Source of the DNA: Acidobacteriota bacterium
GTDB lineage: Bacteria > Acidobacteriota > Thermoanaerobaculia > Multivoradales > J023
DNA: 64,000 nt
Assembly (NCBI GenBank): GCA_029263355.1
Contig: JAJCXQ010000686.1
Location: 177 to 64,176, forward strand
Reading direction: 5' to 3'
Below are positions 19,191 through 51,647 of this stretch, in pieces (position 1 is the stretch's first letter; each line of letters opens with the position of its first letter). A model generated the notes under the pieces. That model worked only from the letters and a program-made list of their open reading frames with translations, was not told where the DNA came from and ran no database searches. Made by a program: the position numbers and the translations under genes.

Positions 19191-19236
19191 GTCTCGCTTT
19201 GATGAGGGCCAGGCTGAAATTATTGGGATAACGACT

Positions 19237-26352: not shown

Positions 26353-28509
26353 TCAGAACGTGAGCAGCTCACGGGCCGCAGCCAACACCTTGTCCGTCGA
26401 GGGCAGCAAGGCCTGTTCGAGATTTTTGGCAAAGGGCACGGCACGGTCGGGGTAGGCGACGCGCTTGACCGGTGCGTCGAGCCAGGAGAAGGCCTGGTCG
26501 GCGATGCGTGCGACCACTTCACCTCCAAAGCCCGCGGTTTCCTGAGCTTCGTGCACCACCAGCGCCCGCCCGGTCTTGCGGACCGACGTCAGTATGGCCT
26601 CTTCATCCAGGGGTACCAGGGTACGCAGATCAACCACCTCGACCTCGACTCCTTCTTTGGCAAGTGCGTCAGCGGCTTCGAGGCAAGTCCAGACACCGGA
26701 GCCGTAGGTCACCATCGTGAGATCCGTACCGACACGCCGAACAGTGGCAACTCCCAGCTCGAACACCTCGTCGGGACCGGGAAGCACCGCCTTGATCCGC
26801 CGATAAAGGAATTTGTGCTCGCAGAAGACAACCGGATTAGGATCTCGGATCGCCGCCTTGAGCAGACCTTTGGCATCCTCGGCGGTGGCTGGACACACCA
26901 CTTTGAGACCGGCGACGTGAGCGAACCAGGCTTCAGGATTCTGGGAGTGAAACGGACCAGCGCCGACACCTCCACCTGCCGGCAGGCGCACCACCAGTGG
27001 ACACGGAACCTGCCAACGATAGAAGAACTTGGCGATGACGTTGACCATCTGATTGAAGCCACAGGAGATGAAATCACCGAATTGCATCTCCACCACCGGT
27101 CGATAACCCAACAAGGCGGCTCCAGCAGCGATTCCCAAGGTACCGCTCTCCGCGATCGGGGTATCGAGCACCCGCTTCGGCCAACGTTTCCACAGCCCTT
27201 TTGTAATCCGGAAGGCGCCTTCGAAGGCGGCGATATCCTGGCCCATGAGTATCACTCGATCATCGCGTTCGAGTTCTTCCCGCAGCGCCTGGTGGATACC
27301 TTCGACGTAGGTTTCCGGCTGCGTATCCTCAACACCCGCCAGGGCACTCTCGGACGGTGCTCCATCAGACGACGCTTCCTTGGAAAGTATTTCCTCGGAT
27401 AGATCGATCTCGAGCTCTTCCGAGTCGACTGGAGGCGTTTGCTCAGGCAGCGACGATTCTCCAAACGATAGCGCCAGAGCGGGCCGGAATGCGATCTCGT
27501 CCTCAGGACCAGGAGCCTCGACCGCTCGTGCCACTGCTTCTTCCACTAATTCGGAAATCCGCCCTTCTAGGCGCGCCAGCAATTCGCTGTCGAGAACTCC
27601 CTTGGTGTCGAGTTGGCGGGCGTAGGCTGGCACCGGGTCCTGGCTCATATAGACCTCGAGCTCGGCTTCCGGGACAACTTTGAGGGAATCGTCACCTTCA
27701 CTGTGGCCGCGCATCCGGCCGAGCATCGCTTCGATCAAGGTCGGGCCGGCCCCGGACCGGGCGCGCTCCAAAGCTTCTGCCATCGCCACGCCAACACTCT
27801 CTGGATCATTACCATCAACGGTCACCGCGGCCATGCCATAGCCAATACCTCGATCGCTCAGGCGCTCGGCGGCATATTGATCCGAGGTTGGCGTCGAGAA
27901 CGCATAGCGGTTGTTCTCGATCACCAGAATCAACGGCAACTTCCAAACCGCGGCCATGTTGAGGCCCTCGTGGAAGTCGCCGGTGGAGGTGCCGCCGTCG
28001 CCAATGAAATTCAACGCCACCCGGTCGGTGCCGGCTTGCTTGAGTGCGAAGGCTGCACCCGCAGCGACAGGAATCATCGAACCAAGATGGCTGATCATGC
28101 CGATGTGGCGGATGCCTTGGCGCGGGTCCAGGTAACCGTAGTGAAACGACCGCTCGACGCCACTCGAGAAACCATCAGCCCGGCCGAGGAGCTGGCAACA
28201 CAGTCGGTAGAGCAACTCTCGCGGCTCCGGGCGGATGCCATCCGGCTCGCCGAACCCGAATCCGGGGAAAGCCCGCGCCGGGTCGAGATAAACCGACAGG
28301 ATGGCGCCAAGATCGCGGTGTAAAGAGCACAACACGTCCCCTGGCTCGAGGGCCAGCCCGGAAGCTACCGTCGTCGCTTCGCTGCCGATCTGGCTGTACC
28401 ATTTGGACAGACGTCCGGTACGCAACAACATCGCAAAACGAGTGTCGAGGTCGCGGGCGAACCGCATGTAAGCGTAGTGCAGCAGCCGCAGTGGGTCGAG
28501 GTCGCTCAT
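26353..28509 (-). CDS. 2-oxoacid dehydrogenase E1 component, fused alpha-beta subunits (TPP-dependent)
   Basis: N-half E1-alpha (YRLCCQLLGRADGFSSG...GDGGTSTGDFHEGLNMAAV) and C-half E1-beta (ILMGQDIA..GAFRITKGL...TPIAESGTLGIAAGAALLGYRPVVEMQFGDF) joined by acidic linker in one 718-aa ORF. Confidence 0.88.
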   Translation of the reverse strand: MSDLDPLRLLHYAYMRFARDLDTRFAMLLRTGRLSKWYSQIGSEATTVASGLALEPGDVLCSLHRDLGAILSVYLDPARAFPGFGFGEPDGIRPEPRELLYRLCCQLLGRADGFSSGVERSFHYGYLDPRQGIRHIGMISHLGSMIPVAAGAAFALKQAGTDRVALNFIGDGGTSTGDFHEGLNMAAVWKLPLILVIENNRYAFSTPTSDQYAAERLSDRGIGYGMAAVTVDGNDPESVGVAMAEALERARSGAGPTLIEAMLGRMRGHSEGDDSLKVVPEAELEVYMSQDPVPAYARQLDTKGVLDSELLARLEGRISELVEEAVARAVEAPGPEDEIAFRPALALSFGESSLPEQTPPVDSEELEIDLSEEILSKEASSDGAPSESALAGVEDTQPETYVEGIHQALREELERDDRVILMGQDIAAFEGAFRITKGLWKRWPKRVLDTPIAESGTLGIAAGAALLGYRPVVEMQFGDFISCGFNQMVNVIAKFFYRWQVPCPLVVRLPAGGGVGAGPFHSQNPEAWFAHVAGLKVVCPATAEDAKGLLKAAIRDPNPVVFCEHKFLYRRIKAVLPGPDEVFELGVATVRRVGTDLTMVTYGSGVWTCLEAADALAKEGVEVEVVDLRTLVPLDEEAILTSVRKTGRALVVHEAQETAGFGGEVVARIADQAFSWLDAPVKRVAYPDRAVPFAKNLEQALLPSTDKVLAAARELLTF

Positions 28510-37254: not shown

Positions 37255-38676
37255 TCAGAAGTTGATCGTACGTTTGTCGACGGCCAACGCCGCCTCTTTG
37301 AGGGCCTCCGCGAGGGTGGGGTGAGCGTGGACGGAACGGGCGATATCTTCGCTCGAGGCGCCAAACTCTATCGCCACCGCCGCCTCAGCGATCAAGTCTC
37401 CGGCCCGCGGCCCAATGATGTGGACCCCGAGCACACGATCGGTCTCGGCGTCGGCGAGGACTTTGACCTGACCTTCAGTTTGATTCAAGGCCTTGGCCCG
37501 GCCGTTGGCCGAGAACGGGAACTTACCCTTGCGGTATTTGATACCGGCTTCTTTGAGCTGTTCCTCGCTCTTGCCGACGGTGGCGATCTCTGGATGGGTG
37601 TAGACGATACCCGGGATAGCATCGTAGTTGACGTGGCCGAACCCGGTGGCCAAGAACTCAGCACACGCCACCCCCTCGTGTTCGGCCTTGTGCGCCAACA
37701 TCGGCCCGGCGATAACGTCTCCGAGGGCGTAGACACCCGCGGCAGAGGTTTGGAAGTGCTCGTCGACTGGAATGCGACCCCGCTCGTCGAGCTCGACACC
37801 CACCGACGCCAACCCGAGGTCGTTGGTGTAAGGACGACGGCCGACGGCAACCAGCACTCGGTCGCACTCGATCGGTTCCATACCTTCAGCTTCAACGACA
37901 CAGCCCTCACCGACAACAACTCGCGCGCCGGTGACCCGGGTGCCGAGGCGAAACTCGATGCCCTGCTTCTTGAAGATCTGACGGGCACGTTTGGCGGTAT
38001 CGGCATCCATGCCTGGCAGGATACGGTCGAGATACTCGAGCACCGTGACCTTGGCGCCCAACCGGGCCCACACCGAGCCGAGCTCGAGACCGATGTAGCC
38101 GGCTCCAATCACCACCAGATGCTCCGGAACCTCCGGATAGGACAACGCCTCGGTGGACGAGCCGATGCGATCCCAGTCCATCTCGACCCCCGGAAGGGTC
38201 GCAACCTCGGAGCCAGTGGCCAAAATGACATGTTTGGCGAGCAATTTGACCACCGTCTCAGTGTTCCCCGCTTCGTCGGCCCCGCCTTCCGACTCGACGA
38301 TCACACTTCCCGGACCCTCGAGGCGTCCATGACCCCTGTAGCGGGTGATTTTGTTCTTCTTGAACAGACCCGCCACTCCACCAGTGAGGGCAGTAACGAT
38401 GTTGTCCTTGTGCTGCAGCATGGCGCCGAGGTCGAATCCGACCCCTTCGACGGTGACGCCGAAGGCTGCCAAGCCATGTTTGGTCTCCTCGTAACGCTCG
38501 CTCGCTTCCAACAGGGCCTTCGTAGGGATGCAGCCGTCTCGCAGGCAGGTCCCTCCGAGCGCCGGTTCCTTCTCGACGCAAGCGGTGTCCAGGCCCAACT
38601 GGGCGGCGCGGATTGCGGCGACATAACCACCGGGACCCGAGCCGATAATCACTAGATCGTGCTCGTGCTCTTCCAT
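37255..38676 (-). CDS. lpd: Dihydrolipoyl dehydrogenase (E3)
   Basis: DLVIIGSGPGGYVAAIRAAQLG, GGTCLRDGCIPTK redox-active disulfide, NAD site VVIGAGYIGLE, C-terminal HAHPTLAE. Confidence 0.93.
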   Translation of the reverse strand: MEEHEHDLVIIGSGPGGYVAAIRAAQLGLDTACVEKEPALGGTCLRDGCIPTKALLEASERYEETKHGLAAFGVTVEGVGFDLGAMLQHKDNIVTALTGGVAGLFKKNKITRYRGHGRLEGPGSVIVESEGGADEAGNTETVVKLLAKHVILATGSEVATLPGVEMDWDRIGSSTEALSYPEVPEHLVVIGAGYIGLELGSVWARLGAKVTVLEYLDRILPGMDADTAKRARQIFKKQGIEFRLGTRVTGARVVVGEGCVVEAEGMEPIECDRVLVAVGRRPYTNDLGLASVGVELDERGRIPVDEHFQTSAAGVYALGDVIAGPMLAHKAEHEGVACAEFLATGFGHVNYDAIPGIVYTHPEIATVGKSEEQLKEAGIKYRKGKFPFSANGRAKALNQTEGQVKVLADAETDRVLGVHIIGPRAGDLIAEAAVAIEFGASSEDIARSVHAHPTLAEALKEAALAVDKRTINF

Positions 38677-38731: not shown

Positions 38732-40057
38732 TCAGATTTCCAGCAAGATCCGCGTTGGATCCTCCAAACGCTCCTTCACGCGGATCAGAAACGTCACCGC
38801 CTCGCGACCGTCGACCAAGCGATGATCGTAGGTCAGAGCGAGGTACATCATCGGCCGAATCACCACCTCACCATCAACCGCCACCGGACGATCCTGGATT
38901 TTGTGCATCCCGAGGATGCCGCTCTGAGGCGGATTGACGATCGGCGTCGACAGCAAAGAACCGTAGATGCCGCCATTCGAGATCGTGAAGGTGCCGCCTT
39001 GCAATTCTTCGAGTTTGAGCTTGCCGTCCCGCGCCCGAACCGCGTAGTCAGCGATGGTCTTCTCGACCTCGGCGAAGCTCAGACGCTCAGCATTGCGGAT
39101 GATGGGCACCACCAATCCCTTGCCGCCACCGACCGCGATCCCAATGTCCTGATAGTTGCGGTAGACGATCTCGTTGCCCCGCACCTCGGCGTTGACTTGC
39201 GGCACGTCTTTCAGCGCCTCGACCACCGCCTTGACGAAAAACGACATGAAGCCGACCTTGATGCCGTATTTGGCGATAAAGGTCTCTTGATACTCCTTGC
39301 GCAGCGCCTTGATGCTCGACATGTCGACTTCGTTGAAGGTGGTGAGCAACGCCGCCGTTTGCTGAGCCTCGACCAAACGCTCGGCCACTCGGCGACGCAA
39401 TGGCGTCATACGCACAACCTCTTCTTGTCGTGAGCCGGCGCCTGGCGCGGAAGGGGCGGCAGGCACAGGCGGTTTGGCAGCTGGAGCAGACGCGGCAGCT
39501 GGAGCAGACGCGGCGGCAGGAGCAGTCGCGGCAGGCGTAGCACGGTGGCGTAAGACGTCCTCTTTCAACAGCCTGCCGCCGGGCCCCGTCGCCGTCACCT
39601 CGGAGGCATCGAGTCCTCTCTCCGCCAATGCCCGACGCGCCGCTGGCATGATGCGCTGGTCGCCGTCGAAGGTCTCGTCGCGAGCGGCGCCTTCTGGCGC
39701 CGAAGTCCCTGCCGAAGCATCTGTCGTTGACTCCGCTGGCTCCTCTGTTGCCGAAGGCTCCTCTGTCGCCGCGGGCTCCGCCAGCTCCGCCGGCTCCGCT
39801 GGCGCGTCGCCAGGCTTCTCGCCCGCTTCCATCAGACCGACGATATCGCCGACTTCGGCGTCGTCACCTTCCTTCTTGAGGATCTGCTTCAGGACGCCAC
39901 TCTCGGGCGCCGGCAGCTCGACGTTGACCTTGTCGGTTTCGATAATCACCAACGGCTCGTCCTCGGCGACCCAATCGCCCTCGGCCTTGAGCCACTCGCC
40001 GATCATCACCTCGGTGATCGACTCCCCCACCGTCGGAATTTTCAACTCGATCGCCAT
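38732..40057 (-). CDS. 2-oxoacid dehydrogenase E2 (dihydrolipoamide acyltransferase; SucB/BkdB-like)
   Basis: Lipoyl domain ([18 protein letters not shown]), Ala/Pro linker, E3-binding domain ([32 protein letters not shown]), catalytic domain with DHRLVDG; start at MAIELKIP. Confidence 0.9.
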
Positions 40058-40280
40058 GCTCGTTCCCCAAAGCTCTACTGTGGAGCTCGTTCCTCGGACG
40101 TCTATGATTTCTTCGGACCCACGCAACTCGGATCCCAAGTTGGCCATCCCATTCGCTGGGATGTTATGTCAGTTGATTCCGCAGTCCAAGCACAACGCCA
40201 TCCCCCACCCCCGTCGAGCGACAGAACAGTGGAGCGTTATACTCTGAGCATCCCGCGACACCAGCCTTCAGCTCCAGCAG

Positions 40281-41486
40281 ATGAGAAAGACATCCAAGGT
40301 CCGCAACACCAAGGTCAACGGTTGTCTCATCGTTGGCTTCTTTGGCATCTTCGCGATCGTGGGCCTTGCCGCAGCCTACTTTCTGACCTGGAAGCCGATC
40401 TCCAGAATCGTCGCGGCTCGAGAATGGGTCGAGACCGAGTGCGTCGTCGTCTCGAGCGATGTCGAAGCCCACCAGGGCAGCGATAGCACCACCTATCGCG
40501 TCGACATCCACTACACCTACGAAGCCGAGTGGCAGACCTACGATGGTCATCGTTACGACTTCAGCGTCGGGTCGTCCAGCGGTTACGATGGTAAAGCGCG
40601 GGTTGTCGAGTCCTTGCCGCCGGGCAGCGAAGCCAGCTGTTACTACAATCCCCTGAAGCCAAGCGAGTCGGTGATCAATCGCGAGCCCGGCTCCTACTTG
40701 TGGTGGGGCCTGTTTCCCTTACCCTTTCTGGCGGTGGGCCTCGGTGGCCTCATCGCCTCGTTGTTCTCATTGAAGTCAGGCGGTGCCCACCCCGGGCGTG
40801 GCGCTGGCCGGCAACCTACGGCGCGTCCCAAACCTCGAGGGTTTCATGCCTCGAGTCAGTCTTCGGGATCAGGCTCTAGGGGCACCTTGGTGCTCGAAAC
40901 CCAGGCCTCTCCGACCACCAAAGTGATCGGCACTTTAGTGTTTGCTATTCTCTGGAATGGCATCGTCAGCCTATTCGTGTTCGGAGACTTCACTTCGAGC
41001 TTCGGTGAAAGTTGGTTCGCCGTGGTTCCGATCCTCTTCCTGACCCCGTTTGTCCTCATCGGGATCGGGCTCATCGGCTTGTTCTTCTACATGGTGCTCG
41101 CCTGGTTCAATCCCCGGCCCAGCTTGACCCTGGCCAACGGTCATCTGACGCCCGGTCAAACGACAACTCTAAGCTGGCAGTTCAACGGCAGCGCGGGACG
41201 CCTTACGAAGCTCACCATCGAGCTTCGGGGCTCCGAAGAGGTACGCTATCGCCGCGGAACCGATACCAAAACCGAGACCCACGTCTTCTACAGCCAACGG
41301 CTGGTGACGGCGGAGCACTTCTCAGTCATCCACCGCGGCCAGGTTGAGATGAATATTCCAGAGGGCACCATGCCGACATTTGATGCCAATAACAACGACA
41401 TCAAGTGGAGCCTGGTGATTTCTGGCGACATTCCACGGTGGCCCGATGTGGACGAAAACTTTCCGATCACGGTTTATCCAGGCTGA
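40281..41486 (+). CDS. DUF3592-domain membrane protein (two-domain)
   Basis: TM helix then W..TEC.V.SS.V......DSTTYRVDIHYTYEA...YNPLKPSESV pattern typical of DUF3592; additional TM pair and second domain. Confidence 0.6.
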   Translation: MRKTSKVRNTKVNGCLIVGFFGIFAIVGLAAAYFLTWKPISRIVAAREWVETECVVVSSDVEAHQGSDSTTYRVDIHYTYEAEWQTYDGHRYDFSVGSSSGYDGKARVVESLPPGSEASCYYNPLKPSESVINREPGSYLWWGLFPLPFLAVGLGGLIASLFSLKSGGAHPGRGAGRQPTARPKPRGFHASSQSSGSGSRGTLVLETQASPTTKVIGTLVFAILWNGIVSLFVFGDFTSSFGESWFAVVPILFLTPFVLIGIGLIGLFFYMVLAWFNPRPSLTLANGHLTPGQTTTLSWQFNGSAGRLTKLTIELRGSEEVRYRRGTDTKTETHVFYSQRLVTAEHFSVIHRGQVEMNIPEGTMPTFDANNNDIKWSLVISGDIPRWPDVDENFPITVYPG

Positions 41487-41842
41487 TGACCCTTCAGATC
41501 CATCTCGACGACCCCAACGCCTATCAACCGGGTGACGAAATTCGCGGCCGGGTCACCTGGCAATCGCTGCAACGTCAACCCAAGTCGGTGTTGATCAGCT
41601 TGCTGTGGCACACCGAAGGTAAGGGTACTGAGGACGTCGAGATCATCGAGCAAATCACCGTCGACGGCCCATCAGCTTCGGGCAGTCGCGAGATCAGTTT
41701 CATCTTGCCAGGCTTCCCGTGGAGTTTCTCGGGAACCCTGCTGTCACTAGTGTGGGCGATCGAAGCCAGCCTGGAACCCGCCGGCGAGGTGACACGGGTC
41801 AACATCGTCTCGGCTCCAGGAGCCGAGGAGATTCAATTGTGA
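41486..41842 (+). CDS. Hypothetical small beta-rich protein
   Basis: ATG overlaps upstream stop (TGATG); MTLQIHLDDPNAYQPGDEIRGRVTWQS...; coupled GTGA to downstream gene. Confidence 0.5.
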   Translation: MTLQIHLDDPNAYQPGDEIRGRVTWQSLQRQPKSVLISLLWHTEGKGTEDVEIIEQITVDGPSASGSREISFILPGFPWSFSGTLLSLVWAIEASLEPAGEVTRVNIVSAPGAEEIQL

Positions 41843-42498
41843 ACGAGCAACCCTTGAGGCGAGCACGCGACAACCCGTTTCGGGTGAGCAGAGTCCACAG
41901 CCTGCGTTACCGCCTCGACGATCCGGACTGGCAGATACTGCTCGATCGATTGGCGCGGCACAGCTATCGCGCCGCCCTCGTCGGGCCTAAAGGCAGTGGT
42001 AAAACGACCCTGCTCGAGGAGTTGGAACAGCGCATCGAAGCGCGCGGTTGGCGTATCGCGCCGGTCCGACTGAGCCGGGAGCGCCGGCGCCCCACCAATG
42101 AGGAGTGGCGACGCTTGAGCGATGCCGGACCCCGGCATCTCGTCACGGTGGATGGTGTTGAGCAGCTCAGCTGGTGGAACTGGCGCGGACTGTCGAGACG
42201 TTGCTGTGGTGCTGGCGGTTTGATCGTCACCAGCCACACACCTGGCCGACTGCCGACCCTGCGTCAGCACCGAACCAACTCAGGCCTCCTAGTCGAACTG
42301 GTGGCCGAACTGCTGACTCCAACCCAGGCCTCGCAACTACGTCCGCATCTCGATCAGCTCTTCGAGCATCATCAGGGTAATCTGCGCGACTGCCTACGCA
42401 GCCTCTATGATGCCTGGGCTCGCGGCGAACACGAGGGGGCGCTCGCGACTCGCGATGACACGGTGAATGCGGTGGACACAAGCCGAAGCGCTGCATAA
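41839..42498 (+). CDS. P-loop NTPase-like hypothetical protein
   Basis: GTG start overlapping upstream stop; Walker A VGPKGSGKTTLLEEL; Walker B-like LVTVDGVEQL. Confidence 0.5.
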   Translation: MNEQPLRRARDNPFRVSRVHSLRYRLDDPDWQILLDRLARHSYRAALVGPKGSGKTTLLEELEQRIEARGWRIAPVRLSRERRRPTNEEWRRLSDAGPRHLVTVDGVEQLSWWNWRGLSRRCCGAGGLIVTSHTPGRLPTLRQHRTNSGLLVELVAELLTPTQASQLRPHLDQLFEHHQGNLRDCLRSLYDAWARGEHEGALATRDDTVNAVDTSRSAA

Positions 42499-42510
42499 TC
42501 AAGACTCCCA

Positions 42511-43791
42511 ATGCCAGATCGACGAATGCCGGATCAACAAATGCCCGCTCCCAGATTGTCGCTGCCGCCGGGTCAACGCGCGGCGGACCGCTTCCCACGT
42601 TTCGGAGCCATCACGCGACCATTGCCCGAAGCGCCCGGCGAGCCTCGGCTACGAATCTCGGGAGCGGTCGAGACAGAGTTCACCTTCGGCCTCGAAGAAC
42701 TTCGTGTCTTGCCGCGGCATGAGCAGGAAAGCGCCTTGCATTGCGTGACCACCTGGACCAAAGAGGGTCTATCCTGGAGCGGTTGGCGGCTCGCCGATCT
42801 GTATCGTCACGTGATCGAGCCGCGCTGTCGGCCTCGGCCGGAGGTCCGGTACCTGATCCTCTTCGGTGACGATGGGTATCGTTGCAGCCTGCATCTCGAC
42901 GACGTTCTTGGAGACAACGCGCTCGCTGATCCAATTCTGATCGCCGACACCCTCGACGGCGAACCGTTGTCATCTATCCACGGCGCGCCGTTGCGCGTCG
43001 TCAGCCCGGGTCAATACGGCTACAAGAACTTGAAACACCTGGCTGGTATCGGGTTGCGCGCCAAACCGATCACCTCGCCCCTGGGTCTCGAACATCCGCG
43101 CGGCCGAGTCGATCATCAGGAGCGCAATGCTCGGTATCCAGCCTGGCTCGTCCGCCGGCCTTATCGGGCGCTGATCGGCGCCACCGCGTTCTTCCAACAT
43201 CGTGGCATCCGCAGCAGGCACTTCGTCGGCCGCCCAACGCTGCTCGACGAACTGATGCCAAACGACGAACATTTCGAGGTCCACGACATCTGGCTCGACG
43301 CCAGCCCGGACGAAGCCTATCGGGCACTGCTCACACTCCGAGGTGACGAGATCCGTCTCCTGCGTCCACTGATGGCGCTGCGGGAGCTACCGGCGCGACT
43401 GGTCGGCCGCACTGTCGGCGGCGATCGCAACGCTCCGGTGCTCGAATCCTTGGTCGCTGGCGGTTTCGTCAAGCTCGCCGAAGAGCCGGGTCGCGAGATT
43501 GTCCTCGGTGTTGTCGGGCGATTTTGGAAACTCACCGGCAATGCTCCGGTGCGTTCCGTCCACGATCGCCAAACCTTCACCGCCTTCAACCAACAGGGCT
43601 ACGCCAAGGCAGCGATGAATCTCTTGGTGCGGGCCGAAGGCCGTGGCAGCCGGCTGATCACCGAAACCCGGATCGATACCACCGACCCAACTGCTGCACG
43701 AAGCTTCCGTCGCTACTGGCGCTGGGTTCGGCCTGGCAGCGGTCTCATCCGTCGCAGCTGGCTCAAAGCAGTCCAGCGACGTTTGATCTAA
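42511..43791 (+). CDS. Molybdopterin-dependent oxidoreductase (sulfite-oxidase/MsrP-like catalytic domain) with C-terminal extra domain
   Basis: RISGAVETEFTFGLEELRVLPRHEQESALHCVTTWTKEGLSWSGWRLADL...DGEPLSSIHGAPLRVVSPGQYGYKNLKHLAGI matches SO-family Moco domain. Confidence 0.75.
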   Translation: MPDRRMPDQQMPAPRLSLPPGQRAADRFPRFGAITRPLPEAPGEPRLRISGAVETEFTFGLEELRVLPRHEQESALHCVTTWTKEGLSWSGWRLADLYRHVIEPRCRPRPEVRYLILFGDDGYRCSLHLDDVLGDNALADPILIADTLDGEPLSSIHGAPLRVVSPGQYGYKNLKHLAGIGLRAKPITSPLGLEHPRGRVDHQERNARYPAWLVRRPYRALIGATAFFQHRGIRSRHFVGRPTLLDELMPNDEHFEVHDIWLDASPDEAYRALLTLRGDEIRLLRPLMALRELPARLVGRTVGGDRNAPVLESLVAGGFVKLAEEPGREIVLGVVGRFWKLTGNAPVRSVHDRQTFTAFNQQGYAKAAMNLLVRAEGRGSRLITETRIDTTDPTAARSFRRYWRWVRPGSGLIRRSWLKAVQRRLI

Positions 43792-44046: not shown

Positions 44047-47000
44047 TCAGGGCTCGAATCGGATATCTGCTTGACCGTACATGCGGCTAGTAACGGTCCG
44101 GGTCGGCCGGGCACTGGGGTTGCTCTGGGTACTGATATAGGTGGACCCTTCGATCCTGATCGGCCCATAAACTTGCGGCAAGGAGGTGATTCCATTGCGG
44201 TAGGAGCCTCCGGATCCGGCGAGGTAAACGGCGACGGTGTAGGTTGTTTCCCCCTGCAACGCTACCGGCGTGATTGGAACATACGCCCAGTCGTTGGCGG
44301 CGGTAACGCTGGCCTGCGCCAGCAGCGCCCCGGTGCTCTTGTTGAAGAGCCTGACGATCTTGGTGCCGTTGAAGAAACCGCCGAGCTCGGTCACCGAGCC
44401 AGCCTTTTCCGGCGTGAAGTGATAGCCCATAGCGTAATTCCAGTTGAGGTTTGTGGCGAGGCTGCCATTGGCGTTCTCTCGCCAGGGTTGTATGCCCGAG
44501 ACGGCGCCGGAGGTGACCGCGATCGTCACCGTCGCGGTATCGGTCAGCCCGCCGACGGCGCGGTCGGCGACGGTGTACGTGAAGGTGTCGGTGCCGACGT
44601 ATCCCGCCGGCGGCGTGTAGTTGAAACCGCCGACATGTCCGGTGTCATTGGTGCCGCCCGCGGCCGTCTCCTGCTCGTAGTCCCTAAGGTACAGGGCGTC
44701 GCCGTCCGGGTCGGAGTCGTTGCCTAGGATCGCTCCAAGCGGAATGGACAGCCGCGTGTCTCGAGGCGTCGTCAAGAAGTCGTCCACGGCCTGCGGCGCC
44801 CGGTTGAGCACGGTGAGGCACGAACCGGAGCTGGCGACGAAGCTGGTGATCGCGGAGATGGACACCGGGTGGAAGGCAGTGGTCGGATTCTGGATCGATC
44901 CACACATCACAGGCCCGCCTTGGATAGGTGTCGGATCCGGGCAGGTGCTGGCTCCGCAGTCGACGTCGGGGCACTCCATTTCGAATTCAGGCTCGGGCAG
45001 CGTGACCTCCAAATGGCGCGCATTGAAGGCGTGCCCGAGTTCGTGGGAAACCAGCCCAGCCTCACGATAGTCGGTCGAAAGCACATAGGCTCGGTCTCGA
45101 TCGCAGATGGTGCCGGCTAGGCCGGAAGTGCCTCGGACGCGAAACTCCCCACCTTGGCTGCTGTCCAAGTAAAGCGCCTTGCCGCTGAAGAGATAGGCGA
45201 CGTCGCGCGCCACATGCTGGCGGTTGGTCTCCCACTCTCGCCAGAGCTCGCACCACTGGCCGTAGGTATGGCAGGTTTCGTAAGGGTCGCCACCCTGCGA
45301 GTCAAAGGTCCGTTGTGAGGTGACTGTGAAGACCAGCCCCGCGTCAGCATAGAAGCCATTGACCATGTTCAATACGCCGAGGATGTGGTTGTTGGTGTTG
45401 CTGCCGTGGATGTCCCAGTACTCGTAATCTGCGTCGGTTGCAATCTCGACCCGGCGCATCGTTTCGAGGTTCTTCTCGAGGCCCGTGAACTGCAGGGCAA
45501 GACCATCGGACTCACTCGCATCCCACAGCCGGTCAGCGTGCTCGTGGAGCTCGGTAACGGCGCAGGAGACGCCGGCGGCCTGCTGGCGCAGGTCGCCGTC
45601 CTCGTAGACCACCACACGGTCGGCGCCACCGCCGGGAACAAATTTATAGGCCGGGTCGACGAAGAACCTCTTGCCGTCGAGCTCCACGTAGCCCATGACA
45701 AGCTCGGCATCGACCAACAGGCGGACGTCGCTTCCGGGATAGCCGGCGACGTGGCCCGCGAACGTATTGACCGCAGCCCGCGGCACATCGATATCACCCT
45801 CCGCAGTCACGATCGTCTCCTGATAGGACGATGCACGAAGTTCATTCGGCTCCAGCACCAGCTCGTAGGGTGAGCCATTGAGAAACATAGTCATCCGGCC
45901 CTTGGCGTCGAGATCGCGGCGCAGGCTGTCCAGATCGATAGATTCCAAAGTGTAGTGAACAAAAGATTCGATCAGTTTCTGGTGGATCTCGAAGTCGCTA
46001 GCGGGCTCAAGGAGCCTTCCGAAACGCTTGCCGCCGCGGCTGAGGTCGCAGGGCCGCGACTCGACTTGGTTCTGGATCGGACACGTCGCCGCGAACACTC
46101 GGTATGGACCACCATCCCAGAAACCGACGCGGTCGGTTCGATCTTTGGCGCATAGGTAGAGGTGGTTGTCACCTGGCGGCACGGTGAGCACACCGCCGGC
46201 GGTGGTCGCAGTACCCGTGGTGCAGGAGCCGTTGTGCGCCACGTTCCATCGGTAGCGCACTTCCGCCAGACCGGAGTTCGCCGCAGTGCCGGAGATGGCG
46301 TCGGCGGCGGTGACGGTCGCGGTGCGCGAGGTGAACCACTCTGTTGAAGCGTTGTCAGCGCTGACGGTAGGGTTGTGACGGTCGACCCGGACGTAGCGCG
46401 GCGTGTTCCAGGGACTCCAGTTGCCGACATTATCCTTCACGCGCACCCAGTATGCACGGCGGAATCCATTCGCCGGCAGCTCGGCGCCGCTGACTGTAAA
46501 CGACGTGCCGCCGCTGGTTGTCAATGTCGACTGGCAGCCGGCAAAGCCACCAGGGGAGTCGTGGCTTCGACACCAGTTGTAGGACTCAGCGTCGACTCCA
46601 GAACCGCTGTCGCTCGCTGGCGCAACGGTAGCGGTGAAACTGCCGGTCACCCAACATTGACCGGGCTCACTGTAGGCGCAGCTGATGGTTGTCGGTCCGG
46701 GAGCCGAAGGGCCGGTCAGGTCCATCTGAACATAGACCTCGTCGTTTTCCGCCCACGTCGAGCAATCGCTGCTAGCGTCGCAAGCGCCGATGTAGTAAGC
46801 ACGACGGAAACCATCCGACGGCAGGTGGCTGCCATCGACGGTGTAGGTGGGGCCGGTGTTGCTGGTCATTACGACGTTGCAGCCGCCCCAGCCGCTGGTG
46901 TCGTTGCTGCGACAGATCCGGTAGTAGTGTGCTCCCGGAGAAAAGTAAAAAAGGGTGAAGCTGCCGTCGACATAACACCTGCCACCGTTGGCGACCGCGT

Positions 47001-47166
47001 CGCACGACGCTGCGGCCCTGTCCGGCGCTGGCGGCGCCGCGGTGGCGGCGCCAGCGCAAAGGACGAGGGAGAGGAGAGTAAGGACGGTCACTGGTCTCAG
47101 AAGAGTGTCGAGCTTCCGACATGCCGGGTTCGGCAAATAGCGAGGACTCGAGGCAATTGCTTTCAT
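44047..47166 (-). CDS. Secreted multidomain zinc metalloprotease-like protein (HExxH...H) with Ig/cadherin-like domain and C-terminal DUF4082
   Basis: Signal peptide; zincin motif VSHELGHAFNARH; VDDFLTTPRDTRLSIPLGAILGNDSDPDGDALYL...TFTYTVAD (Ig/cadherin-like); C-terminal NLNWNYAMGYHFTPEKAGSVTELGGFFNG...TYTVAVYLAGSGGSY (DUF4082-like). Confidence 0.75.
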   Translation of the reverse strand: MKAIASSPRYLPNPACRKLDTLLRPVTVLTLLSLVLCAGAATAAPPAPDRAAASCDAVANGGRCYVDGSFTLFYFSPGAHYYRICRSNDTSGWGGCNVVMTSNTGPTYTVDGSHLPSDGFRRAYYIGACDASSDCSTWAENDEVYVQMDLTGPSAPGPTTISCAYSEPGQCWVTGSFTATVAPASDSGSGVDAESYNWCRSHDSPGGFAGCQSTLTTSGGTSFTVSGAELPANGFRRAYWVRVKDNVGNWSPWNTPRYVRVDRHNPTVSADNASTEWFTSRTATVTAADAISGTAANSGLAEVRYRWNVAHNGSCTTGTATTAGGVLTVPPGDNHLYLCAKDRTDRVGFWDGGPYRVFAATCPIQNQVESRPCDLSRGGKRFGRLLEPASDFEIHQKLIESFVHYTLESIDLDSLRRDLDAKGRMTMFLNGSPYELVLEPNELRASSYQETIVTAEGDIDVPRAAVNTFAGHVAGYPGSDVRLLVDAELVMGYVELDGKRFFVDPAYKFVPGGGADRVVVYEDGDLRQQAAGVSCAVTELHEHADRLWDASESDGLALQFTGLEKNLETMRRVEIATDADYEYWDIHGSNTNNHILGVLNMVNGFYADAGLVFTVTSQRTFDSQGGDPYETCHTYGQWCELWREWETNRQHVARDVAYLFSGKALYLDSSQGGEFRVRGTSGLAGTICDRDRAYVLSTDYREAGLVSHELGHAFNARHLEVTLPEPEFEMECPDVDCGASTCPDPTPIQGGPVMCGSIQNPTTAFHPVSISAITSFVASSGSCLTVLNRAPQAVDDFLTTPRDTRLSIPLGAILGNDSDPDGDALYLRDYEQETAAGGTNDTGHVGGFNYTPPAGYVGTDTFTYTVADRAVGGLTDTATVTIAVTSGAVSGIQPWRENANGSLATNLNWNYAMGYHFTPEKAGSVTELGGFFNGTKIVRLFNKSTGALLAQASVTAANDWAYVPITPVALQGETTYTVAVYLAGSGGSYRNGITSLPQVYGPIRIEGSTYISTQSNPSARPTRTVTSRMYGQADIRFEP

Positions 47167-47655
47167 TTGCTTGCTCCCATAAATCGTACCGGGCGTCGAC
47201 CCGAGCCGACGTAGATAAATCAAAACGAAGGTGCTCAGAGCATCCTCCACGCCACTATTTAGCAAGGTTAATGCCAGGTTGAAAACAGACAGCTGGAGGT
47301 GTGTACCTCAGCGACCGGCACAGCCCAAAAAGCCTTAACACAAAGGGGCAACGGCCTCCCGAGGCCCGGCAGCATTCCATGGCTGCAGATGTCGTCAGCG
47401 CCGGCGGTGGCTTCGCAGCATGCCCACTGCGTGTGCGCGGAGCACACGTCGTGGGCATCTCAAAAGTTTCTAATCTTTCCCAGGAACAACCACAGTCGTA
47501 TCGGCCTTCGTATCACGGGCCTACGTCAAAACCTCTGTTCCTTGGCGACGAAGCGCCAACGGGGCGCCGGTGCTGGATGGACCGGGCGGCCGATCTTCCG
47601 GCTGGACTGCACACCCACACGGAAAAGGTGGCTGCGCGGAGCGTATTTGATACCC

Positions 47656-48411
47656 CTAAGCCTCGTCCGAACCCTCCTGGACGACACCGACCATGTCATC
47701 ACAATCGTTGATCTCGAGCTCGAATCGCCAGCCTTCGTAGCTCATCAACATGCGCCCCATCTCGTACCACGAGATATCACGTCCGTCGATGACCAAACGA
47801 GGGAGGTCGCCGTCGGTCTCTTCGTCCCACTCGATCTGGCCACGGACATTACCCTCAGCAATCTGTGGCTGCTCATCCGTCGTGAGGTATTTCTTCCCCA
47901 ACTCGTCACGCATCCGCTGGTACAAGACTCGAAATAGATCCATAGGATCTTTCTCAGCATCGCCGAGGACGCTGAACTCGTAGCCTTTGACCTCACCTTG
48001 ACGCACCTCGAGGGCGTCAATCTTGACCACCTCGCCGTGGAGATGGGTTCGAAACTCGAAGTCGTGCTCGGCGCCCGTGCTGTCTGCGACACTGATCGGC
48101 ACGAAGTCGGGGTGTTCAAAATCGAGCTCCATGGTGACGCTCATCATTTCGTTGTAACAGCGACCACAGAGCAGGGTTCCAGGATCACCCTGCTCGCGCA
48201 AAAGCTGGACGCCATCATGGGAGCGGATGACCTTGTTGCAGTTTTGGCAGCGATCTTTCAACCCAAAGCCTCCGCGATCAAACGAGCCTGTTCTTGCTTG
48301 TGGGCTGCCGCCGAACCCGTCGCCGGACTGGCCGACTCTGGGCGGGTGACGGCCTCCAGCGGCCACCGACCAAAAAGCTGGCGACTGAGGCGCAATAACA
48401 GGAAGCTCCAA
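47656..48411 (-). CDS. Hypothetical protein with CxxC...CxxC zinc-ribbon; start uncertain (5' part overlaps sucA 3' end)
   Basis: CQNCNKVIRSHDG...LLCGRCYNEM; ORF overlaps 48258..48411 of the sucA-like gene, so true start likely downstream. Confidence 0.4.
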   Translation of the reverse strand: MELPVIAPQSPAFWSVAAGGRHPPRVGQSGDGFGGSPQARTGSFDRGGFGLKDRCQNCNKVIRSHDGVQLLREQGDPGTLLCGRCYNEMMSVTMELDFEHPDFVPISVADSTGAEHDFEFRTHLHGEVVKIDALEVRQGEVKGYEFSVLGDAEKDPMDLFRVLYQRMRDELGKKYLTTDEQPQIAEGNVRGQIEWDEETDGDLPRLVIDGRDISWYEMGRMLMSYEGWRFELEINDCDDMVGVVQEGSDEA

Positions 48412-51400
48412 GCGCCCATGTTGCGTGGCTCTTCTTGTACCCAGACGATCGGCGTACCGTCGGCATAGGGAGACAACGCGGCTTCGAGAAGATCTGTGGA
48501 CAGCGGGTAGTACTGCTCGAGTCGAACGATCGCCACGTCGTCGCGCTCACCTTCCTGTCGCGCGGACTCGAGCTCGTAGTAGACCTTGCCGCTGGTGAGC
48601 AGCACTCGTTTGACGCCTGCCGGGTCGACCTGGTCGTCGGCGATGACCCGTTGAAACCGCCCCTCGGCGAGCTGATCCATACTCGAGACCGCCTGCGGAT
48701 GGCGCAACAGGCTCTTGGGCGACATCACGATCAACGGTTTTCGCCAGGGCCGCAGCACCTGGCGTCGCAAGCAGTGGAAAAACTGCGCCGGTGTCGTCAG
48801 ATTGACAACTTGAATGTTGTCTTCCGCTGCCAGATTTAGAAACCGCTCGAGGCGAGCAGAGGAATGCTCCGGCCCCTGGCCCTCGAAGCCGTGGGGCAAC
48901 AACATCACGAGGCTCGACAGCCGCCGCCACTTGTCTTCACCCGAGGTGATGAACTGATCGATGATCACCTGCGCACAATTCGAGAAGTCTCCAAACTGTG
49001 CCTCCCACACGTTCAAACCTTCCGGTGTATCGAGACTGAAGCCGTACTCGAATCCGACGACGCTGACCTCGGACAACGGACTATCCCAGACGTGGACCTC
49101 GGCCTGTCCCGCCGCCAAGTGTTGCAACGGCACATGGACTTCACCACTTTGCGAGTCGTAGAGCAACGCGTGGCGGTGGCTGAACGTGCCGCGCCCGGAG
49201 TCCTGGCCACTGAATCGCACCGGCGAGCCTTCGACCGCCAAGGACGCCAGGGTCAGAGTCTCGGTCGCACCCCAATCGAGAGGCTGCTCCCCCGCCGCCA
49301 TTTTGAGCCGATTGTTGAAAATCCGCTTCAGGGTTTTGTGAATGTTGAAATCGGGTGGAATCTCGGTGCTCTTTCTCAGCAGCGCAGCGAGCTTTTCCTT
49401 TGCGACACCGGTCTCGACCTCGGGTGAGTCGCGGTCCGCACCGCCGCGGTAGCCGTGCCACAGCCCCTCTCCCGAACGCGGCCCACCCAGCTTGTACTCC
49501 GGATCCTGCGCCATGCTGAGCTCGTCGTCCAAAACTCGAGACCGCTGCTCTTTGATCTTCTGCGCCTCTTCGCGCCGGATCCCGCCGAGCTCCAGGAGAT
49601 AGTCGAGGTAACCCTCTCGGACCGTCTTGCGTTGGCGAATGACCTCGTACAGCAGCGGCTGGGTGAACCTCGGCTCATCACCTTCGTTGTGGCCGTGACG
49701 CCGGTAGCAGTACATGTCGATGATGACGTCCTGTTGAAACTCGCGTCGGAAATCCATCGCCGTACGCACCACCCGGGCGACGGCTTCCGGGTCTTCACCG
49801 TTGACGTGGAACACCGGGGTCTGGACCATGCGAGCGACGTCGGTGGCGTAATGGGTCGAACGCGCCATCTCCGGCGAGGTCGTAAAACCGATCTGGTTGT
49901 TGACGATGACGTGCAACGTGCCGCCGGTGCGATAACCCGGTAGGTCCGCCATGTTGAACAGCTCCTGGATCACCCCTTGGCCAGCAAAAGCCGCGTCACC
50001 GTGTACCAAGATGCCGAGGCAGCGGCGATGCTCAGTATCACCGAAACGCTGCTGCTTGGCCCGCACTCGCCCCTGGAGCACCGGGTTGACGAACTCCAAA
50101 TGACTGGGATTGAAGCACAGCGACAAGTGCATCTGGCGACCGTCTTCCGTAGCTCGGTCGGAGCTGTAGCCGAGGTGGTATTTGACATCACCACGGCCGA
50201 TGAACTCCTCAGCGTGATCGTCGGCGAATTCGCGAAAAATCTCGCGTGGGCTCTTGCCCATGATGTTGACCAAAACATTGAGACGCCCACGATGGGCCAT
50301 GCCGAGGACCACCTCTTCGACGCCTTGATCACCGGCCTCTTCGAGGGCGAGATCGAGCAATGGAATCAGGGTCTCTGCCCCCTCCAGCGAGAAGCGCTTG
50401 GCGCCCAGAAACTTCTTGTGGATAAATTGCTCGAAGAGCTCAGCATCGGTCAGCTTGGTCAAGATCCGCAATTTCTCATCGCGACTCAACTGACGATGAT
50501 GGTTGGAATCTTCGAGGCGGTTGATCAGCCAGTTCTTGGCATGCACGTCGTCGATGTGCATGAATTGCACGCCGATCGAGCGGCAATAAGCAGACTCGAG
50601 CAAAGCCAGGATATCGCGCAAGGTCAGGACGGTGGTTCCAGCGATCGTGGTCGATGAGAACAGCGAGTCGAGATCTTTCTCCGACAAGCCCCAATGCTCG
50701 AGCTCGAGCTCCGGATTCGAGCCTCTTGGACGACCGAGGGGATCGAGCTTCGCCAACAGGTGGCCACGCACCCGATAAGCGTGAATCAAACGGTTGACCC
50801 GATCCTGGCGGGAGCTGCGCTCGCGCAGACGCAGAGACAGCATCCGGAGGAAACCACGGTTGAGTGCCGGGCGGCGTTCGAGTTGCACCAACAGATCAGC
50901 CCGCGACAGACTCAGGGTGGTGACATTGCCGTGGGCTACGATGTCGGCAGACCGTGGTTGAGCATCGAGCACCGACATCTCGCCAACCACATCACCGGGG
51001 TGCAAGGTGATAATGATCTCGTCCTTGCGCCGCGCCGAAAGCTCGCCCTCGATCAACAAGAACAGACGGTCACCCTCTTCCGCTTCCCGGCACAGGAACT
51101 CGCCGTCGGCGAAACGCTCTTCGACCGCCAGCACTGCCAAGGCGGCAATTTCTTCCCGCGGCAGTCCTTTGAAGAGCTTCAGTTTTTGTAGAAACTCGAT
51201 CCTCTCGGCCACCTCGCGGGAGATCGCCACCGGCGCTTCGGCGGCGGAGGCGGCTCCGGTCGCTGAGGCACCAACGGTAGCCGACACTCCAGTTGTCGAC
51301 ACTCTAGCCGTCGACCCTCCAGCCATCGACTTCGGCGCTACAGCACTGACATCACTCGGTGGATCGAAAATGCTGGCGGCTTTGAAACTCGGACCGTCCA

Positions 51401-51560
51401 CCGAGCGGCGCGCCGCCCGGGCGTCGCCATCCTCAGCCGCCCAATTTTCGAAGTAAAGGCGCCAGTCGGCATCAACCGACGCTGGGTCCTCGAGATAGTC
51501 CGCATACAGCCCCTCGACAAAAGCGAGGTTGGATCCGGTCAACGAATCGTCGCGTGTCAT
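48258..51560 (-). CDS. sucA: 2-oxoglutarate dehydrogenase E1 component (SucA-type) with an inserted cyclic-nucleotide-binding (CAP-effector) domain
   Basis: N-terminal OGDH motif LAFVEGLYADYLEDPASVDADWRLYFENW; then CNB domain (FKGLPREEI...GEFLCREAEEGDRLFLLIEGEL...GDVVGEMSVLDAQPRSADIVAHGNVTTLSLSRADL); then canonical E1o core (GMAHRGRLNVL, TPP-binding, C-terminal OGDH_C). Confidence 0.88.
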   Translation of the reverse strand: MTRDDSLTGSNLAFVEGLYADYLEDPASVDADWRLYFENWAAEDGDARAARRSVDGPSFKAASIFDPPSDVSAVAPKSMAGGSTARVSTTGVSATVGASATGAASAAEAPVAISREVAERIEFLQKLKLFKGLPREEIAALAVLAVEERFADGEFLCREAEEGDRLFLLIEGELSARRKDEIIITLHPGDVVGEMSVLDAQPRSADIVAHGNVTTLSLSRADLLVQLERRPALNRGFLRMLSLRLRERSSRQDRVNRLIHAYRVRGHLLAKLDPLGRPRGSNPELELEHWGLSEKDLDSLFSSTTIAGTTVLTLRDILALLESAYCRSIGVQFMHIDDVHAKNWLINRLEDSNHHRQLSRDEKLRILTKLTDAELFEQFIHKKFLGAKRFSLEGAETLIPLLDLALEEAGDQGVEEVVLGMAHRGRLNVLVNIMGKSPREIFREFADDHAEEFIGRGDVKYHLGYSSDRATEDGRQMHLSLCFNPSHLEFVNPVLQGRVRAKQQRFGDTEHRRCLGILVHGDAAFAGQGVIQELFNMADLPGYRTGGTLHVIVNNQIGFTTSPEMARSTHYATDVARMVQTPVFHVNGEDPEAVARVVRTAMDFRREFQQDVIIDMYCYRRHGHNEGDEPRFTQPLLYEVIRQRKTVREGYLDYLLELGGIRREEAQKIKEQRSRVLDDELSMAQDPEYKLGGPRSGEGLWHGYRGGADRDSPEVETGVAKEKLAALLRKSTEIPPDFNIHKTLKRIFNNRLKMAAGEQPLDWGATETLTLASLAVEGSPVRFSGQDSGRGTFSHRHALLYDSQSGEVHVPLQHLAAGQAEVHVWDSPLSEVSVVGFEYGFSLDTPEGLNVWEAQFGDFSNCAQVIIDQFITSGEDKWRRLSSLVMLLPHGFEGQGPEHSSARLERFLNLAAEDNIQVVNLTTPAQFFHCLRRQVLRPWRKPLIVMSPKSLLRHPQAVSSMDQLAEGRFQRVIADDQVDPAGVKRVLLTSGKVYYELESARQEGERDDVAIVRLEQYYPLSTDLLEAALSPYADGTPIVWVQEEPRNMGAWSFLLLRLSRQLFGRWPLEAVTRPESASPATGSAAAHKQEQARLIAEALG

Positions 51561-51647
51561 GTCTGCTCCTGAATAGGATCTGCGTCTGAAATCGGCCGAG
51601 CGCCTCGCCGAGGGTCTCTATTCTGTCCGATGTTGCGCGCGGATCGT

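Follow-up and report, generated by a model that had tools for sequence, protein, structure and literature searches.

We identified a SucA-type 2-oxoglutarate dehydrogenase E1 component in which a complete cyclic nucleotide-binding (CNB) domain follows the N-terminal E2-docking motif and precedes an intact E1o core, an architecture recovered by Pfam, NCBIfam, AF2 and Foldseek and in agreement with the initial annotation of the sequence. The protein is encoded on the reverse strand of the window, the 64,000-nucleotide stretch of Acidobacteriota DNA that was analysed here. We lean towards reading it as a true E1o whose tether holds a rigidly coupled cNMP sensor, which would tune catalysis. The arrangement had not been recognised as a described one in the initial annotation, and our full-text literature search aimed at the fusion likewise found no paper describing or testing it; the accessible part of the 2007 CNB census mentions no dehydrogenase, and comparison with the PDB found no sensor domain on a solved SucA. 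What is new is the recognition of the fusion and its implied function rather than the sequences, as public databases already contain many proteins of this architecture, named only '2-oxoglutarate dehydrogenase E1 component'.

Architecture of the CNB-SucA protein

The CNB-SucA gene (48258..51560, reverse strand) starts with ATG and encodes 1100 residues plus a stop in a single uninterrupted frame with no internal stops. Sequence inspection revealed a good ribosome-binding site, the Shine-Dalgarno sequence AGGAG (51566..51570, reverse strand), 5 nt 5' of the ATG. The GC content along the gene is flat (0.57-0.62), and the public collection has an identical protein (P0113) from a 67.6-kb NCBI contig. 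The full SucA domain set was detected by Pfam, each domain above its gathering score. The N-terminal motif PF16078 (2-oxogl_dehyd_N; 1.4e-12) spans aa 6-40 (51441..51545, reverse strand), a region in which AF2 places helices at residues 12-24 and 31-43; canonical E1o uses this segment to dock onto E2o. It is followed by a flexible, Ala/Ser/Thr/Gly-rich linker of variable length (aa 41-114; 51219..51440, reverse strand), which was delimited by AF2 and alignment, has a pLDDT below 50 at aa 67-109 and shows a mean pairwise identity of 0.35 in the fusion alignment. The complete ThDP-dependent E1o core occupies aa 251-1100 (48261..50810, reverse strand; NCBIfam, PDB and Foldseek), with E1_dh at aa 376-686, Transket_pyr at aa 760-953 and OxoGdeHyase_C at aa 958-1099. 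In close SucA relatives without the CNB domain, one clean block of about 150-170 residues is missing between 'SIFxPP' and 'SRQDRVNQLIHAYRVRGH', and 'inserted module' is therefore an accurate term.

The CNB domain itself comprises N-terminal helices, a beta-barrel and the B and C helices (aa 115-250; 50811..51218, reverse strand), as delimited by PF00027, AF2 and Foldseek. A PF00027 search, which had been proposed as the check on this domain, gave a significant match at aa 148-228 (E 8.7e-16; 58.1 bits against a gathering score of 27.5) covering profile positions 2-87 of 89. AF2 models the region with a pLDDT of about 80-92 and with the order of elements expected of the CNB fold, that is, a beta-barrel between helices (helix 135-144; strands 146-150, 155-157, 165-178 and 181-186), a short cassette helix (194-199) and, after the last strand (206-219), the B and C helices (220-229 and 231 onward). 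Foldseek matched the region to M. tuberculosis CRP, GlxR and the S. coelicolor regulator 2pqq (TM 0.79-0.85). By sequence, its closest solved relatives are PKG, PKA-R, M. tuberculosis Crp and MloK1, all proven cNMP binders.

The hallmark phosphate-binding cassette that had been claimed for this domain, GDVVGEMSVLDAQPRSADIVA, was found intact at aa 189-209 (50934..50996, reverse strand), delimited by conservation in 111 fusions and by the PKG alignment, in which it matches the cassettes of Plasmodium PKG residue for residue. In such cassettes, the Gly-Glu pair contacts the ribose 2'-OH, and the Arg-[Ser/Thr/Ala]-Ala motif contacts the cyclic phosphate; the window protein carries both, as G193-E194 and R203-S204-A205. 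Among the 111 fusions, G189 is conserved in 97%, G193 in 100%, E194 in 98%, P202 in 96%, R203 in 96%, S204 in 71% and A205 in 99%, and the mean identity of the domain as a whole is only 44%, against the 96-100% of the cassette residues other than S204. From this pattern we infer that the domain binds a 3',5'-cyclic nucleotide. As to which, cAMP would be our default guess and cGMP is also possible, since the sequence assigns neither; no cyclase or phosphodiesterase gene was found within the window. About 4% of the fusion members have a degenerate cassette, the Arg or Glu being lost in P0143 (PHSS), P0149 and P0152 (PWSA) and P0207 (GG), and in these few members the CNB domain is thus retained even where canonical binding is doubtful.

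The two sides of the module differ in how they are joined to their neighbors. On the core side, the spacing from Arg203 to Tyr262 is exactly 59 residues in 106 of 106 aligned fusions and in all 136 matched by motif, and the DSSP assignment of the AF2 monomer prediction shows one unbroken helix (aa 231-269; 50754..50870, reverse strand; pLDDT 76 at aa 241-250) that runs from the C-helix of the sensor into the first helix of the E1o small helical domain. On the N-terminal side, the distance from Tyr19 to Arg120 varies from 58 to 113 residues among the fusions. The model and these spacings are best read as a sensor that is rigidly coupled to the core, with a floppy, variable linker on the sensor's N-terminal side.

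SucA identity, distribution and genomic context

Several comparisons bear on the identity of the core. The window protein scored 1234.9 bits against the NCBIfam SucA equivalog NF006914 (cut-off 764), with the core alignment starting at aa 248 (profile position 74), and 1078 bits against TIGR00239 (cut-off 770). The crystal structures 6km9 and 2jgd align from aa 249-251, and Foldseek placed the core on V. vulnificus SucA (6kma/6km9; E 1e-86, TMt 0.94) and on 2jgd (TMt 0.92-0.93). H423 (in GMAHRGRLN) and H462 (in GDVKYH) align to E. coli E1o positions 260 and 298 and are invariant in 112 sequences; we take the E. coli residues His260 and His298 to recognise the distal carboxylate of 2-oxoglutarate. 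The sequence is best read as that of the organism's genuine 2-oxoglutarate dehydrogenase E1 component (SucA).

A survey of how widely the fusion is spread, as the initial annotation had suggested, recovered it in at least 160 protein clusters (at 90% identity) from Acidobacteriota, Myxococcota and two Acidiferrobacterales MAGs, and the cultured hosts include Sulfidibacter corallicola, where it lies on an 11.8-Mb contig, and Acanthopleuribacter pedis. Fusions were found in NCBI, ENA, JGI and Logan assemblies, some of them on contigs several Mb long. They make up 111 of the best 120 clusters for the window protein and all of the best 120 for an Acidiferrobacterales member that is 52% identical to it. 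Among the database entries, a few (P0001 and P0003) are fragments that are truncated or carry frameshifts. Relatives without the CNB domain nest within the fusion clade and do not form a parallel paralogue lineage; one of them, P0134, has lost the domain while its core is 87% identical to those of fusion proteins, so the module is cleanly removable. In Acidobacteriota and Myxococcota, the CNB-SucA fusion is of old standing and is kept under purifying selection.

Genes for the partner subunits lie on the same strand of the window. About 8 kb downstream of sucA, sucB (38732..40147, reverse strand) encodes an E2o succinyltransferase with lipoyl, E3-binding and catalytic domains in Pfam (NF004309, 571 bits against a cut-off of 449; TIGR01347, 525 bits), and lpd (37255..38676, reverse strand) encodes the E3 dihydrolipoyl dehydrogenase (TIGR01350, 559 bits). 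In related loci, sucB is immediately downstream of CNB-sucA in three (L083, L006 and L003) and not adjacent to it in three others (L001, L084 and L085). The TTG start of a 201-residue DUF7685/DUF7686/DUF7713 gene (47656..48261, reverse strand) overlaps the sucA stop codon (TTGA), and the two genes are probably co-translated; this neighbor is kept only in the nearest relative (L082).

Proposed gating of E1o and alternative explanations

E1o has a documented resting/active switch under allosteric control (PMC10415282). In the mechanism that we propose, E1o would have gained a canonical CNB domain within its tether, the normally disordered stretch from the E2o-docking motif to the catalytic core. 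Ligand binding would rearrange the cassette and the B and C helices, as in other CNB proteins, and this movement would pass through the rigid helix to the E1o small helical domain, where it would shift the same resting/active equilibrium that is targeted by acetyl-CoA and GarA/OdhI in actinobacterial KGD/OdhA. A second messenger could thereby directly set the 2-oxoglutarate flux, by activation or by inhibition. We consider the chances about even that the 2-oxoglutarate dehydrogenase of this clade is gated in this way, directly by a cyclic nucleotide on its E1 subunit and through a rigid signalling helix acting on the resting/active switch; this would then be the first instance of a second-messenger receptor built into a 2-oxoacid dehydrogenase complex, and a single protein would connect cAMP/cGMP signalling with the carbon/nitrogen node at 2-oxoglutarate.

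The position of the insertion, exactly in the tether from PF16078 to the core, would also suit a control of assembly rather than of catalysis, in which the ligand exposes or masks the N-terminal E2o-docking helices, or alters the reach of the tether, and so governs E1o recruitment to the SucB core. The N-terminal segment has been implicated in inter-component contacts of the actinobacterial, human and bovine enzymes (PMC10415282), and the docking motif is conserved among the fusions (mean identity 0.49). We regard this reading as unlikely, as the link from the docking motif to the CNB domain is the disordered linker of variable length described above, a poor transmitter of conformational change, whereas it is the link from the CNB domain to the core that has a constant length. 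We give similarly little weight to the idea that the fold senses some further ligand, be it a nucleoside, a metabolite or a nucleotide distinct from cAMP and cGMP, or is a purely structural, dimerising module, with its C-helices pairing between the two subunits of the E1o homodimer as those of CRP do. It draws on the best structural matches being CRP-family sensor domains, in which the long C-helix is the dimer interface, on E1o being an obligate dimer (PMC10415282), and on the degenerate cassettes of some members; the diversity of CNB ligands is further documented (PMC2246266; PMC10959531), as CNB folds of the CRP/FNR superfamily can bind molecules that are not cyclic nucleotides, and trypanosome PKA reportedly binds nucleosides (PMC10959531). 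Set against this is the 96-100% conservation in the G-E...P-R-S-A cassette, with its ribose and cyclic phosphate contacts; such a cassette marks true cNMP binders, and CNB-like sensors of other ligands, CooA for example, have usually lost it (PMC2246266).

More doubtful still is a specialised paralogue beside a normal SucA, such as a 2-oxoglutarate decarboxylase or an enzyme of the 2-oxoadipate type, reserved for a condition that is signalled by a cNMP. The gene does stand alone, away from sucB, in L001, L084 and L085, but the score far above the SucA equivalog cut-off, the invariant 2-oxoglutarate-recognising histidines, the canonical sucA-sucB adjacency in the three other loci and the placement of CNB-less relatives inside the clade all speak against it. 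A contaminating insertion or frameshift, which the initial annotation had named as a possible refutation, can be dismissed, and the probability that we assign to any artefact (frameshift, mis-assembly or a chimera of a CNB gene and sucA) is negligible. Although the window derives from a metagenome-type contig and fragment entries exist, the gene is a single ORF with a ribosome-binding site, the junction length is invariant, and the architecture recurs in independent assemblies across the at least 160 clusters, with isolate-named entries from the two cultured hosts among them.

2-Oxoglutarate is a meeting point of carbon and nitrogen metabolism, and flux is controlled to a major extent at its dehydrogenase. 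To our knowledge, the known controls of bacterial OGDH are indirect or act via separate regulators, namely transcription and sRNAs in enterobacteria, and GarA/OdhI with PknG, and acetyl-CoA, in actinobacteria. The conserved built-in sensor suggests direct second-messenger control of this branch point; if our favored reading is true, a cyclic-nucleotide receptor fused in cis would add a third and much more direct route, and the known outputs of bacterial cNMP signalling, which are transcription factors, channels and acetyltransferases, would come to include a central enzyme of the TCA cycle. The fusion would also offer a compact natural system for following how ligand binding at a CNB domain is relayed to a large ThDP enzyme by way of a rigid helix, and the module is possibly transplantable as a ligand-controlled switch for TCA flux engineering. 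With Sulfidibacter corallicola and Acanthopleuribacter pedis in culture, the idea is directly testable.

Comparison with known systems

Canonical E1o (E. coli 2JGD and Vibrio vulnificus 6KM9) shares with the window protein the docking motif, the small helical domain, the ThDP fold, the C-terminal domain and the sucB and lpd partners, with a core identity of 45-49%, a TMt of 0.92-0.94 and the substrate histidines kept; it differs in its short disordered tether (aa ~40-85), which is replaced here by a linker of about 75 residues and a 135-residue CNB domain. Actinobacterial KGD/OdhA likewise carries an extra function fused directly N-terminal to the small helical domain of E1o, and its E1o activity is allosterically set by the resting/active switch (PMC10415282), as we propose for the window protein. 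The fused unit there is an E2o succinyltransferase domain on a 17-residue linker, and the regulators are separate (acetyl-CoA and phospho-dependent OdhI), whereas here the fused module itself is the predicted small-molecule sensor and the junction a predicted rigid helix. The window protein exceeded the cut-off of NF008907 (PRK12270; 1158 bits against 878), but the alignment is confined to profile positions 394-1239, which are the SucA part, and Pfam found in the protein no E2o succinyltransferase domain (PF00198), the one that multifunctional KGD/OdhA carries at its N-terminus.

Mycobacterial Pat (Rv0998/MSMEG_5458) carries an N-terminal CNB domain in cis on an enzyme, which gives cAMP a direct effect on a metabolic regulator, and the CNB region here gives a partial match to NF058543 (positions 1-117, 30 bits). 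Pat has a GNAT acetyltransferase catalytic domain and not a ThDP enzyme, and it acts indirectly by acetylating enzymes; at 30 bits against a cut-off of 460, the window protein is not a member of its family. The cAMP receptor domains of CRP and GlxR resemble the sensor (TMq 0.83-0.85) in their long C-helix and RSA-type cassette, but their C-helix leads into a DNA-binding domain and that of the window protein into an enzyme. Pfam detected no helix-turn-helix domain in it, and its score of 16.4 bits against NF008732 (CRP; cut-off 266) also sets it apart from the CRP/FNR transcription factors. CNB domains have further been grafted onto a structural protein, the family 2B encapsulin shell protein (NF041163, partial match; PMC11550324), and onto a metabolic-type one, a trypanosome PGK-like protein (PMC7729029). 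Both hosts are unrelated to SucA, and the catalytic residues are gone from the PGK-like protein, in contrast to the intact E1o core of the window protein.

Domain architecture of CNB-SucA

The fusion of a 2-oxoglutarate dehydrogenase E1 (E1o, SucA) with a cyclic-nucleotide-binding (CNB) domain is encoded at 48258-51560 on the minus strand by one open reading frame of 1100 codons, which has an ATG start, a ribosome-binding site (AGGAG) 5 bases 5' of it, and a uniform base composition along its length. Pfam searches identified, in order, the SucA N-terminal motif (PF16078, aa 6-40), cNMP_binding (PF00027, aa 148-228), E1_dh (aa 376-686), Transket_pyr (aa 760-953), and OxoGdeHyase_C (aa 958-1099). 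The PF00027 match spans 86 of the 89 profile positions with an E-value of 8.7e-16 and a score of 58 bits (gathering score, 27.5), as the initial annotation had proposed to verify. The NCBIfam SucA equivalogs scored 1235 and 1078 bits, far over their cut-offs, with the core alignment beginning at aa 248 (profile position 74). This domain order and these scores confirm, as originally written, a SucA-type E1 with a complete inserted CNB domain, and the hallmark phosphate-binding cassette that had been pointed out was located at aa 189-209, where it aligns exactly with the cassettes of PKG. Every sequence and fold criterion examined agreed with membership of both families, and by sequence the protein is a SucA family member that contains a PF00027 family member. 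Assignment as a CRP/FNR-type transcription factor was rejected, as there is no HTH domain, and so was an actinobacterial two-in-one KGD, as there is no E2 domain; the score against the two-in-one model PRK12270 exceeds its cut-off through the SucA part alone.

Structural comparison with Foldseek matched the E1o core to solved SucA structures with a TMt of 0.94. His423 and His462, both invariant, align to His260 and His298 of the E. coli enzyme, which we take to be the histidines recognizing the distal carboxylate of 2-oxoglutarate. Judged from alignment and model, the core looks functional. In near relatives that do not carry the CNB domain, one clean block is absent between the conserved 'SIFxPP' and 'SRQDRVNQLIHAYRVRGH'. 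One of them, P0134, has a core 87% identical to that of the fusion proteins and retains a C-helix remnant (…RQRERGSRQDKVN…), and therefore represents a secondary loss of the CNB domain inside the fusion clade.

Recurrence of the fusion and its genomic neighborhood

With the first 338 residues as query, no match reached 600 aa, all being fragments, frameshifted entries, or N-termini of ordinary SucA proteins, and the rarity hinted at by this query was overturned by the full-length search. The latter recovered an identical protein (P0113, from a 67.6-kb NCBI contig) and the same five-domain architecture in 111 of the 120 best clusters at 90% identity, down to 54% identity. When a 52%-identical member from an Acidiferrobacterales metagenome-assembled genome (MAG) served as a second query, all 120 best matches were fusions, 56 of them new. 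Thus, the survey suggested by the initial annotation yielded at least 160 clusters at 90% identity from both searches combined. In the library at 50% identity, the family is reduced to roughly twelve representatives, with many fragments among them, since core identity never drops below 57%. A genome-contig search with a CNB-plus-junction profile gave 7 fusions in 80 loci among the matches listed, most of the others being stand-alone CNB proteins. Representative matches to the CNB region also include three giant proteins (P0238, P0244, and P0246; 2651-3779 aa), in each of which CNB-domain matches occur 12-14 times in tandem.

Among the matches listed, the fusion occurs in Acidobacteriota MAGs, including Thermoanaerobaculia and 'Candidatus Multivoradales', in MAGs labeled Myxococcota, Myxococcales, or Deltaproteobacteria, and in two Acidiferrobacterales MAGs. 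The cultured hosts are the Holophagae Sulfidibacter corallicola (11.8-Mb genome) and Acanthopleuribacter pedis. The nearest named relatives, P0115 (83%) and L002 (79%), are both from Acidobacteriota, and all named entries are annotated at source just as '2-oxoglutarate dehydrogenase E1 component'. Recurrence of the architecture in independent assemblies rules out a chimera or a frameshift, the latter named in the initial annotation among the refuting conditions, and an assembly artefact is effectively excluded.

The genes for E2o (sucB, 38732-40147; NF004309, 571 bits) and E3 (lpd, 37255-38676) lie on the same minus strand, about 8 kb downstream of sucA. The intervening region begins with a 201-aa DUF7685/DUF7686/DUF7713 gene (47656-48261, minus strand) encoding an N-terminal CxxC...CxxC, whose TTG start codon shares bases with the TGA stop codon of sucA (TTGA), suggesting that the two are translationally coupled. 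This gene has the same arrangement at L082, the locus of the nearest relative (84% identity), and was not found by tblastn beside sucA in the other fusion loci examined (L001-L007, L014, and L083-L085). It is followed by a 1072-aa reprolysin/M12-like metalloprotease with cadherin-like/Big_9 domains (44047-47265, minus strand) and by a plus-strand block (40281-43791) encoding a DUF3592 protein, an AAA_16 NTPase, and a molybdopterin oxidoreductase. L082 displays this gene order, with a 118-aa ORF without Pfam match added to the three-gene block, and lacks the metalloprotease, which therefore looks like a recent insertion splitting the suc neighborhood. At L083, L006, and L003, sucB directly follows the fusion gene as in a canonical sucAB operon, while at L001, L084 (S. 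corallicola), and L085 the fusion gene stands alone. By its sucB and lpd neighbors, the enzyme looks part of the complex.

The window also encodes a second 2-oxoacid dehydrogenase E1, a 718-aa polypeptide (26353-28509, minus strand) in which PDH-type E1 alpha and E1 beta are fused (E1_dh, Transket_pyr, and Transketolase_C). Upstream of sucA by 8.5 kb, the same strand encodes a Ser/Thr protein kinase with eight TPR repeats behind the kinase domain (60080-62854, minus strand). Its layout bears a superficial likeness to PknG, and kinases of that type control OGDH in Actinobacteria, but the likeness is probably coincidental. A scan of window ORFs down to about 200 aa in length found no cyclase or phosphodiesterase gene. 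On the TARA marine scaffold L001, a stand-alone 170-aa CNB protein is encoded at 18782-19294 (minus strand), about 5.5 kb from the fusion gene and adjoining a large MFS/TLC/HEAT transporter-like gene.

The CNB sensor and its junction with the E1o core

Across the 111 fusions, mean identity is 66% in the core, 44% in the CNB region, and 35% in the linker, and the ligand-contacting positions are highly conserved (G172 and G193 100%, A205 99%, E194 98%, G189 97%, P202 and R203 96%). The solved proteins closest in sequence to the CNB region, namely Plasmodium PKG, PKA regulatory subunits, M. tuberculosis Crp, and MloK1, are proven cyclic-nucleotide binders. AlphaFold2 (AF2) modeled the domain with a pLDDT of about 80-92 within the full-length protein and a mean of 85.6 alone. 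Its Foldseek matches were likewise sensor domains, that of M. tuberculosis CRP at a TMq of 0.85, that of GlxR at 0.83, and that of a Streptomyces regulator at 0.79-0.82. On these grounds, the sensor looks functional. Its 'RSA' cassette is known in cAMP and cGMP binders alike and, being common to both, does not assign either ligand from sequence. A few members (P0143, P0149, P0152, and P0207) have lost the cassette Arg (as PHSS or PWSA) or Glu (as GG) while keeping the domain and its exact 59-residue spacing, which hints at a structural role independent of ligand binding.

The two sides of the sensor are attached differently. On the N-side, aa 67-109 are predicted to be disordered and the Tyr19-to-Arg120 distance varies from 58 to 113 residues among fusions, so the sensor appears loosely tethered to the docking motif. 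On the C-side, exactly 59 residues separate the cassette Arg203 from Tyr262 of the core 'AYR' motif in all aligned (106/106) and motif-matched (136/136) fusions, and aa 231-269 form a single helix in the AF2 model, which runs from the CNB C-helix through the initial helix of the small helical domain of E1o; the joint would therefore be fixed in length and helical register. Such loose N-side and fixed C-side attachment is the pattern expected for a signaling helix.

We lean, by a modest degree, toward a true E1o with catalytic activity that is adjusted through this helix: a cyclic nucleotide would bind the fused sensor, and the signal would pass along the rigid helix into E1o. The sensor could instead govern docking of E1o onto SucB, a form of assembly control that we regard as unlikely and against which the floppy N-side linker speaks. 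We hold about the same doubt toward a sensor that binds a ligand other than a cyclic nucleotide or serves mainly as a dimerizing module. The resemblance of the C-helix to that of CRP and the small number of degenerate cassettes speak for this reading, and the general conservation of the cassette speaks against it. A specialized paralogue would fit the three stand-alone loci but seems quite improbable, given that the substrate histidines never vary and that three loci show the canonical sucA-sucB order; this reading overlaps the others, so that the probabilities need not add up to certainty.

Relation to known regulated enzymes

The initial annotation did not recognize this as a described arrangement, and our search agrees: no description of the fusion was found in the full-text literature searched, whose coverage is incomplete, so that a mention elsewhere is possible, and the 2007 CNB census by Kannan (PMC2246266) mentions no dehydrogenase. 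The protein joins two well-known modules, whose combination appears not to have been described and has clear mechanistic implications, and the two cultured hosts, S. corallicola and A. pedis, are open to experiment.

With respect to domain organization, the closest functional analogy is mycobacterial Pat, a cAMP-regulated enzyme that likewise carries its CNB domain fused in cis. With respect to regulation through an E1o conformational switch, it is actinobacterial KGD/OdhA. E1o enzymes switch between resting and active conformations, and in KGD/OdhA acetyl-CoA stabilizes the active state while GarA/OdhI stabilizes the resting state (PMC10415282). There, an E2o domain is fused to E1o through a 17-residue linker (PMC10415282), whereas CNB-SucA carries a different module, a sensor, at the same point.
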